The notes beneath the pieces are model-generated. The model ran no database searches, was not told the origin of the DNA, and saw only the letters and a list, made by a program, of their open reading frames with translations. Position numbers and translations under genes: made by a program. From the NCBI RefSeq assembly GCF_003594875.1, contig NZ_QZEY01000015.1, forward strand, positions 1 to 64,000: a stretch of DNA of 64,000 nucleotides, read 5' to 3'. Position 1 is the stretch's first letter. Every line of letters starts with the position of its first letter. This document shows, piece after piece, positions 158 through 388 of the stretch. The stretch is from Bailinhaonella thermotolerans (GTDB lineage: Bacteria; Actinomycetota; Actinomycetes; Streptosporangiales; Streptosporangiaceae).

Positions 158-388
158 CTACATCTTCTTGTAGACGATGGGCATCACCAGGCCGATGATG
201 GCCAGGGCCTCGGCGAACACCAGACCGAGGATGATCTGCTGCCGCAGGAGCTGGAACATCTCCGGCTGGCGGGCGATCGCCTGGACGCCGTGCCCGAAGA
301 CGAGGCCGATGCCGATGCCCGGGCCGATGGCCGCGAGGCCGTAGCCGATCGCGGTCACGTCTCCGGTGAGCTGGGCGGCGAGGGACAT
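158..388 (-). CDS. atpE: F-type ATP synthase subunit c paralog (76 aa), apparently orphan
   Basis: Internal Met of ORF 158..508. Translation [45 protein letters not shown]...[22 protein letters not shown] has the glycine-rich helix 1, the ARQPE polar loop and a helix-2 carboxylate (Glu) as in actinobacterial AtpE. RBS ggaagggga sits 5 nt upstream. No atpB upstream or atpF downstream; a palindromic GC-rich region follows. Confidence 0.8.

Follow-up and report, generated by a model that had tools for sequence, protein, structure and literature searches.

A stand-alone and probably lineage-specific duplicate of the ATP synthase gene atpE next to an NfeD-flotillin-AAA+ cassette in Bailinhaonella thermotolerans

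The first 64,000 nucleotides (nt) of contig NZ_QZEY01000015.1 of the actinomycete Bailinhaonella thermotolerans, here called the window, carry close to their start a small gene for the c-subunit of F-type ATP synthase (atpE) that stands apart from all other genes of the enzyme. Our analysis indicates that this gene is an ordinary lineage-specific duplicate, that the giant AAA+ gene next to it is a coincidental neighbor, and that there is no sign of a new c-ring type or of a new complex. In the explanation that we favor and regard as probable, the ectopic duplicate has been retained and supplies an alternative proton-type protomer to the single F1Fo enzyme of the cell. Ectopic duplicates of ATP synthase subunit genes are already known, and the window gene is another such case.

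158-388, minus strand: atpE paralogue outside an operon, encoding a 76-amino-acid (aa) F-type c-subunit, predicted to be proton-type (ATG at 386-388, TAG at 158-160)

The product is 100% identical to RJL24409.1 / WP_119929785.1, which carries the NCBI name "ATP synthase F0 subunit C." The hallmarks of an Fo c-subunit reported in the initial annotation, i.e., a helical hairpin, an ARQPE loop, and a carboxylate in helix 2, are all present, and the profile scores lie above the cutoffs of Pfam ATP-synt_C (PF00137; 52.6 bits, cutoff 24) and of TIGR01260, the general F0 subunit c equivalog (47.9 bits, cutoff 43.95). The best-scoring model, the NCBIfam atpE profile NF005900, gave 78.5 bits, which is under its cutoff of 114 bits, but this shortfall is uninformative because operon-type AtpE proteins of Streptosporangiales fall short too (83.7 bits for P0003, 88.3 for P0049, and 82.9 for P0002), the window protein lying 4 to 10 bits below them. 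The GC content at the three codon positions (0.68/0.38/0.97) follows the coding pattern of a genome with 75% GC, a pattern that is absent from a possible 5' extension of the frame to position 508 (0.65 at all three positions). In the AlphaFold2 model (mean predicted local distance difference test score of 70.7), helices span residues 2 to 40 and 42 to 75 with a break in the RQPE loop, and the ARQPE stretch at residues 39 to 43 provides the short polar R-Q-P link of the hairpin. Three elements are invariant in a family alignment of 22 sequences, namely, the glycines G22, G24, G26, and G28 of the GxGxGxG motif in helix 1, the ARQPE loop, and Glu60. As far as the sequence can tell, 158-388 is thus confirmed as a genuine, intact c-subunit gene lying outside any atp operon.

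The ion site of the protein can be read against solved structures. Glu60 lies midway along helix 2, at the alignment position that holds the ion-binding carboxylate in solved c-subunits and Glu65 in Ilyobacter tartaricus. The Na+ ligands Gln32, Ser66, Thr67, and Tyr70 of the I. tartaricus protein (reference sequence with a length equal to that in PDB entry 1yce) correspond to Ile27, Ala61, Leu62, and Ile65 in the window protein. Judged by these residues, the site is of the proton type. The model of the N-ATPase c-subunit, TIGR03322, scored 25.2 bits against a cutoff of 130.85, and models of the V/A-type proteolipid (subunit K/c) scored 17 to 23 bits against cutoffs of 101 to 188. N-ATPase and Na+-type c-subunits resemble the present case in being a second c-subunit type beside a housekeeping one, whereas the window gene lies outside an atpDCQRBEFAG locus and its product is without the Na+ ligands.

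The genome encodes a second c-subunit, P0002 (RJL24505.1; 79 aa), which is 73% identical and 89% similar to the window copy, so that the paralogue status assumed at the outset holds. Ion-site residues and the glycine motif are identical in the two proteins, both Bailinhaonella c-subunits are by these residues proton-type, and the earlier proposal of a second type of c-ring was not borne out. In the loop and helix 2, the two proteins can be told apart by the stretch EMFQLLR (window copy) versus EMYNILR (P0002). The window c-subunit, the AAA+ protein (RJL24410.1), a flotillin (RJL24411.1), and P0002 are all recorded on the 208,804-bp contig, on which the consecutive accession numbers RJL24409 to RJL24411 rise with the window coordinate. 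Using accession numbers as a proxy for position (the two c-subunits are 96 numbers apart), P0002 is therefore located about 96 coding sequences off in the plus direction and not past the window start, i.e., roughly 40 kb beyond the window end, and its absence from the 64-kb window is consistent with this location. The window copy is a paralogue and not a displaced sole copy, a scenario that had been raised initially and is unlikely with P0002 on the same contig.

It could still be asked whether the gene is the operon copy after all, with atpF and the remaining atp genes right past the window start, where the covered downstream side comprises positions 1-157 only. We consider this barely credible. 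The gene upstream is the AAA+ gene and not atpB, and downstream there are 157 nt of noncoding DNA with hairpins and a U-tract instead of the 30- to 32-nt atpE-atpF spacer of three canonical Streptosporangiales operons; no atpF-like start was found in positions 1-157, and the second atpE is 96 genes away in the opposite direction. The lack of an atpB/atpF context, as originally described with the giant AAA+ gene on one side and palindromes and a U-tract on the other, extends to the whole 64-kb window, in which no homologue of atpI, atpB, atpF, atpH, or atpA was detected. There were also no atpB or atpF remnants in the flanks of the paralogue and no synteny of the window with the flanks of atp operons.

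The closest outside relative, P0003, resides in a normal atpB-atpE-atpF-atpH-atpA-atpG-atpD-atpC operon, and in each of the 80 actinomycete genomes sampled, the listed atpE match is flanked by atpB and atpF. The initial statement that actinomycete atpE sits strictly inside the operon is to this extent correct, but it fails for species of Nonomuraea, which carry stand-alone copies in addition. With operon-encoded actinobacterial AtpE, the window copy has in common its length, fold, GxGxGxG motif, ARQPE loop, and helix-2 Glu, and it is 59 to 72% identical to the AtpE proteins of Streptosporangiales and Streptomyces. It differs from them in its genomic position, a KKM C terminus, four replacements (Y45F, N51Q, F56L, and F71I), and a faster rate of evolution, as detailed below.

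The origin of the copy can be traced with some confidence to the Bailinhaonella lineage itself. The helix-2 sequence ALAIIG was found only in the two Bailinhaonella copies, which also have Met44 of the loop in common, and nucleotide homology to canonical loci ends at the borders of the open reading frame (ORF) of the window atpE. The GC content at third codon positions (GC3) of 0.97 is similar to that of the neighboring genes, i.e., codon usage is native. Taken together, the shared derived residues, the ORF-limited homology, and the native GC3 point to a duplication of the atpE coding sequence alone in this lineage and not to a recent import. Since bootstrap values around the orphan were below 20% in a neighbor-joining tree of c-subunits, which was used only for branch lengths, the inference of a lineage-specific duplication rests on the shared derived residues.

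Independent cases of stand-alone atpE were detected in three species of Nonomuraea (N. fuscirosea, N. gerenzanensis, and N. parvosata), on the following loci.

L086, 8001-8234: stand-alone Nonomuraea atpE
L087, 4963-5196: stand-alone Nonomuraea atpE
L090, 6001-6234: stand-alone Nonomuraea atpE
L093 and L094, 4001-4234 in both: stand-alone Nonomuraea atpE

N. fuscirosea has an operon copy (P0049) within atpIBEFHAGDC, and its stand-alone copy (P0073) is flanked by a RibD_C gene and, in convergent orientation, a gene for a helix-turn-helix (HTH)-TPR regulator. Over codons 4 to 72, the two genes show 27 synonymous and 0 nonsynonymous differences, with a synonymous divergence (dS) of 0.76, which is higher than that obtained when the operon copies are compared between Nonomuraea and Herbidospora (about 0.4). 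A second context (MarR/acetyltransferase) is occupied by the orphans P0103 of N. gerenzanensis and P0017 of N. parvosata, which are syntenic between the species, in the order c-subunit, convergent acetyltransferase, DUF4874/DUF4832, and PCMT. The ratio of nonsynonymous to synonymous divergence (dN/dS) of this pair is 0.22, and an upstream element is conserved; an element of the form GTCCATT ... ATGTGGCGGAATG ... GACGGCGAC is common to L090, L093, and L094. The Nonomuraea stand-alone genes have GTG starts and a GC3 of 0.82 to 0.85, lower than that of the operon copy, which they match exactly or almost exactly in the core of the protein.

Like the window gene, the Nonomuraea orphans are single c-subunit ORFs located off the operon, with homology limited to the ORF, in genomes that have a full atpIBEFHAGDC. 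They differ in their independent origin, their other contexts, the GTG start, a nonsynonymous divergence (dN) of about 0 in the core, and conservation across species, whereas the window copy is far more diverged and has so far been found in one species only. Judged by these three independent contexts, stand-alone atpE genes arise repeatedly in Streptosporangiales and can persist under what reads as strong purifying selection. The conservation in Nonomuraea is the best, albeit indirect, argument that such copies are used. As a separate observation on a canonical locus, no atpF was called between atpE and atpH at 4235-5025 of L097 (GCA_000715975.1, with the same AtpE protein as Sphaerisporangium viridialbum); this gap in an otherwise canonical operon may stem from a frameshift or from incomplete annotation.

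The three genes upstream of the paralogue form a cassette of their own.

578-5686, minus strand: giant protein with DUF3686 (beta-propeller), DUF7902, and AAA+ domains (Pfam; RJL24410.1), context outside the atpE unit
5766-7832, minus strand: flotillin/Band_7 (SPFH) protein of 688 aa, second gene of the cassette (RJL24411.1, "flotillin family protein")
7870-8481, minus strand: NfeD/YuaF-like membrane protein, first gene of the cassette (tblastn, 52 to 54% identity to the genes preceding the flotillin gene in L081 and L083)

The AAA+ protein has a size of 1,665 to 1,702 aa (NCBI models of 1,697 and 1,665 aa), is annotated as "DNA repair ATPase," and has 6,573 homologues at an E value of ≤1e-10, the best of which are about 70 to 74% identical across actinomycetes. 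The N-terminal 311 aa of the flotillin match PF01145 (Band_7) at 33.2 bits; the full-length protein gave no Pfam match at an E value of ≤0.01, probably suppressed by its long Ala/Glu-rich coiled-coil tail. In L081 and L083, too, the AAA+ gene comes after a flotillin orthologue. Operons of Band-7/flotillin, YqiJ/YuaF, and a novel AAA+ ATPase with a coiled coil and a beta-propeller have been described in a comparative study, in which a cassette of this type was predicted to act in membrane dynamics (PMC11237479). The genes at 7870-8481, 5766-7832, and 578-5686 match that cassette, whereas the published version contains no c-subunit, so that the orphan is an add-on at the 3' border. Our literature search retrieved no mention of DUF3686.

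The initial annotation had suggested that a c-ring might have been recruited into another complex with the AAA+ protein, and a dedicated membrane partner of the flotillin-AAA+ machine could be imagined in view of an AAA+ gene that lies 189 nt upstream on the same strand without a canonical terminator in between. In part of the literature, SPFH proteins are moreover proposed as organizers of respiratory complexes. Such a recruitment is nevertheless very improbable, since a c-subunit was found in the flanks of 0 of 83 loci with AAA+ homologues (65 to 81% identical in the C-terminal 450 aa; at least 500 nt of downstream sequence in 77 of the 83), a negative outcome of the initially proposed check of whether orthologues of the paralogue always follow the giant gene. 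The cassette also occurs in Sphaerisporangium and in a metagenomic actinomycete, and in both (L081 and L083) the genes that follow AAA+ are unrelated; in S. viridialbum, cassette and atp operon are about 5 Mb apart. The absence of a c-subunit from the published cassette and the quite different contexts of the Nonomuraea orphans also speak against recruitment. Because no c-subunit accompanies any of the AAA+ loci and the relatives of the cassette differ downstream, the adjacency of atpE and AAA+ appears to be limited to the Bailinhaonella lineage and looks accidental, the 3' border of the cassette being a synteny break where the copy landed. Further genes of the window, unrelated to the paralogue, encode a protein with a YqeB-like bacterial PH domain and a CysS_C (cysteinyl-tRNA ligase anticodon-binding) domain (13242-14060, minus strand) and a small protein with a recombinase-like HTH_62 domain (17763-18014, plus strand).

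The immediate flanks of the paralogue bear on how it could be expressed.

541-580, minus strand: imperfect inverted repeat I3 across the AAA+ stop codon, with 16-nt arms that are 75% complementary (inverted-repeat scan; hairpin in the minimum free energy [MFE] fold)
389-577, minus strand: 189-nt spacer from the AAA+ stop to the atpE start (promoter, Rfam, fold, and homology scans all null)
391-402, minus strand: purine-rich putative ribosome-binding site GGAAGGGGAAGG, read directly from the sequence and ending 2 nt before the ATG
39-127, minus strand: terminator-like 3' region with tandem repeats, palindromes, and GC hairpins, followed by GUGUUUUGUGG (MFE of -77 kcal/mol, z score of -1.87)

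In the spacer, no RNA family around the paralogue came near its Rfam gathering score, the predicted fold is not better than that of shuffled sequence (z score of +0.43), and the sequence is not homologous to the spacers between atpB and atpE in canonical operons. The inverted repeat at 541-580, which is not followed by a U-tract, is a possible weak terminator or attenuator separating the AAA+ gene from atpE. With an imperfect hairpin lacking a U-tract after the AAA+ stop and no promoter recognized, the paralogue may be cotranscribed with the AAA+ gene.

Downstream of the gene, two perfect 12-nt palindromes GCGCGGCCGCGC at 81-92 and 102-113, 9 nt apart, can pair into a 12-bp hairpin stem. Both are carried by the 21-nt tandem repeats at 65-127, with smaller GC-rich hairpins next to them, and the U-tract GUGUUUUGUGG on the coding strand at 39-49 comes after the hairpins. 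A strict terminator scan made no minus-strand call for the structure at 39-127. The repeat unit, GCCGCGCCG-N7-GCGCG, is present in three to four tandem copies at 65-127, extending to about 150, and the palindrome GCGCGGCCGCGC has one further occurrence only in the 64 kb, at 13853. At the window edge, in a locally less GC-rich stretch, adjacent direct repeats of 14 to 15 nt (CCACCAGATCCACAT / CCACCGATCCACAA) at 11-42 could belong to an operator or promoter region of a gene past the window start.

Several observations weigh against a retained and functional protomer. Compared with six outgroups, the window copy has 12 to 14 unique replacements and P0002 has 3 to 5 (binomial P of 0.03 to 0.10), i.e., it has evolved about three times faster and has the longest terminal branch in the neighbor-joining tree. 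The replacements Y45F, N51Q, F56L, and F71I alter residues shared by all 21 other sequences, F56L being located one helical turn before Glu60 (position E-4), and the replacements do not significantly avoid conserved columns (P of 0.16, with the invariant set defined without the orphan). No orthologue of the copy in other genomes was present among the matches listed, which bears on its retention over time, and a sigma-70-type promoter scan yielded 0 sites in the 389-577 spacer. The identification of P0002 as the operon copy is itself indirect and relies on its slower evolution, the normal operon around P0003, and the canonical order at all sampled loci. Finally, both expression of the orphan and its assembly into a c-ring are predictions.

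Most of these points would equally suit a neutral or decaying duplicate, a recent recombination accident that is poorly or not at all expressed and drifts toward loss, all the more as about 70% of random sets of 12 nonsynonymous changes leave so short an ORF open anyway. We regard decay as possible, on balance doubtful. The 12 replacements specific to the orphan are much milder than random ones (mean BLOSUM62 score of +0.75 versus -0.53 over all possible missense changes; P of about 0.004), every catalytic and structural hallmark has been retained together with a strong ribosome-binding site and an intact start, the GC3 is as high as in the neighboring genes, and the orphan atpE genes of related genera are under strong purifying selection. 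Pairwise dN/dS values of the window copy versus its relatives are 0.26 to 0.42. Overall, constraint on the copy is relaxed yet still present, and a specialized isoform and a slowly decaying copy are alike possible.

A specialization of a particular kind would be an inhibitor-insensitive or condition-specific c isoform whose altered helix-2 residues (Phe56Leu near Glu60, Asn51Gln, and Phe71Ile) confer self-protection or adaptation, e.g., to heat. Actinomycetes are known to use target duplication as a means of resistance, the changes are concentrated in the outer helix 2 (position E-4 among them), the species is named thermotolerans, and further orphan copies are found in Nonomuraea, a genus rich in antibiotics. 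We nevertheless hold this to be improbable. No biosynthetic gene cluster adjoins the gene, whose neighbors encode a sugar-binding protein, an aldehyde dehydrogenase, a MarR regulator, and hydrolases; the core of the Nonomuraea orphans does not differ from that of the operon copy, so that these cannot be resistant variants; the glycine motif that sets the ring size is unchanged; and our literature search gave no case of self-resistance by a bacterial atpE.

Duplicated ATP synthase genes outside the main locus have precedents. Koumandou and Kossida (2014) described ectopic duplicates of several subunits, mostly species- or lineage-specific, e.g., an ectopic ATPF0A (atpB) in the actinobacterium Saccharopolyspora erythraea (PMC4154653). 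The cases given there resemble the window gene in that a single subunit gene is duplicated off the main locus. They differ in that ATPF0C, in the part of the survey covering duplications, is duplicated only in-locus (Alkaliphilus) or within duplicated atp loci, namely, full loci, the N-ATPase locus, and the extra F0 gene set of Desulfococcus; neither Table 2 nor the duplication section lists a single ectopic atpE (PMC4154653). Titles and abstracts of the literature on "atpE2" concern Photobacterium, the acetogens Acetobacterium and Clostridium, and unrelated topics, and contain no stand-alone atpE of an actinomycete.

The supply of c-subunits to one enzyme from several genes is also established. 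The hybrid c1/c2/c3 ring of Acetobacterium woodii (PDB 4bem) resembles the reading proposed here in that several genes supply the protomers of one ATP synthase, whereas the A. woodii genes are part of the operon and c1 has a duplicated form with four helices. In such multi-isoform systems, as would be the case here, isoforms may be mixed or differentially regulated. Several genes (ATP5G1 to ATP5G3) encode the c-subunit of the one ATP synthase of mammals. In Podospora anserina, two regulated c-subunit paralogues feed one enzyme (PMC4956034). Among the eukaryotic paralogues, the main differences concern targeting or regulation; for the window copy, expression and assembly are predicted.

Retention as an alternative protomer of the single F1Fo ATP synthase, which we consider the probable explanation, would proceed as follows. 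A copy of the atpE coding sequence only was placed at the synteny break downstream of the NfeD-flotillin-AAA+ cassette, an origin largely borne out by the evidence above, and would there be equipped with its own ribosome-binding site and a terminator-like 3' end. The encoded protein would insert into the membrane as a hairpin and join the Fo c-ring, be it alongside the operon-encoded protomer in mixed rings or, separately regulated, as an alternative to it, and would carry protons on Glu60 as does the canonical subunit. The separate transcriptional context may provide independent control.

A wider and more tentative reading, which we think rather unlikely, is that Streptosporangiales repeatedly create and keep stand-alone atpE genes as a separately regulated pool of protomers for hybrid or alternative c-rings, the Bailinhaonella copy being a specialized isoform (e.g., for temperature, developmental stage, or inhibitor tolerance). 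It is suggested by the three independent contexts and by Nonomuraea copies with essentially no amino acid change at saturating synonymous divergence. If it were true, a little-recognized layer of ATP synthase regulation would exist in actinomycetes. The more useful by-product of this study is the recurrence of orphan atpE genes in Streptosporangiales and their strong conservation in Nonomuraea. Should the orphan of B. thermotolerans be expressed and its product built into the ring, an additional gene under separate control could allow a bacterium that has only one atp operon to adjust its c-ring. This could influence the supply of protomers, the formation of mixed rings, and the sensitivity to drugs, with relevance for bioenergetics and for antibiotics that target the c-ring in actinomycetes.

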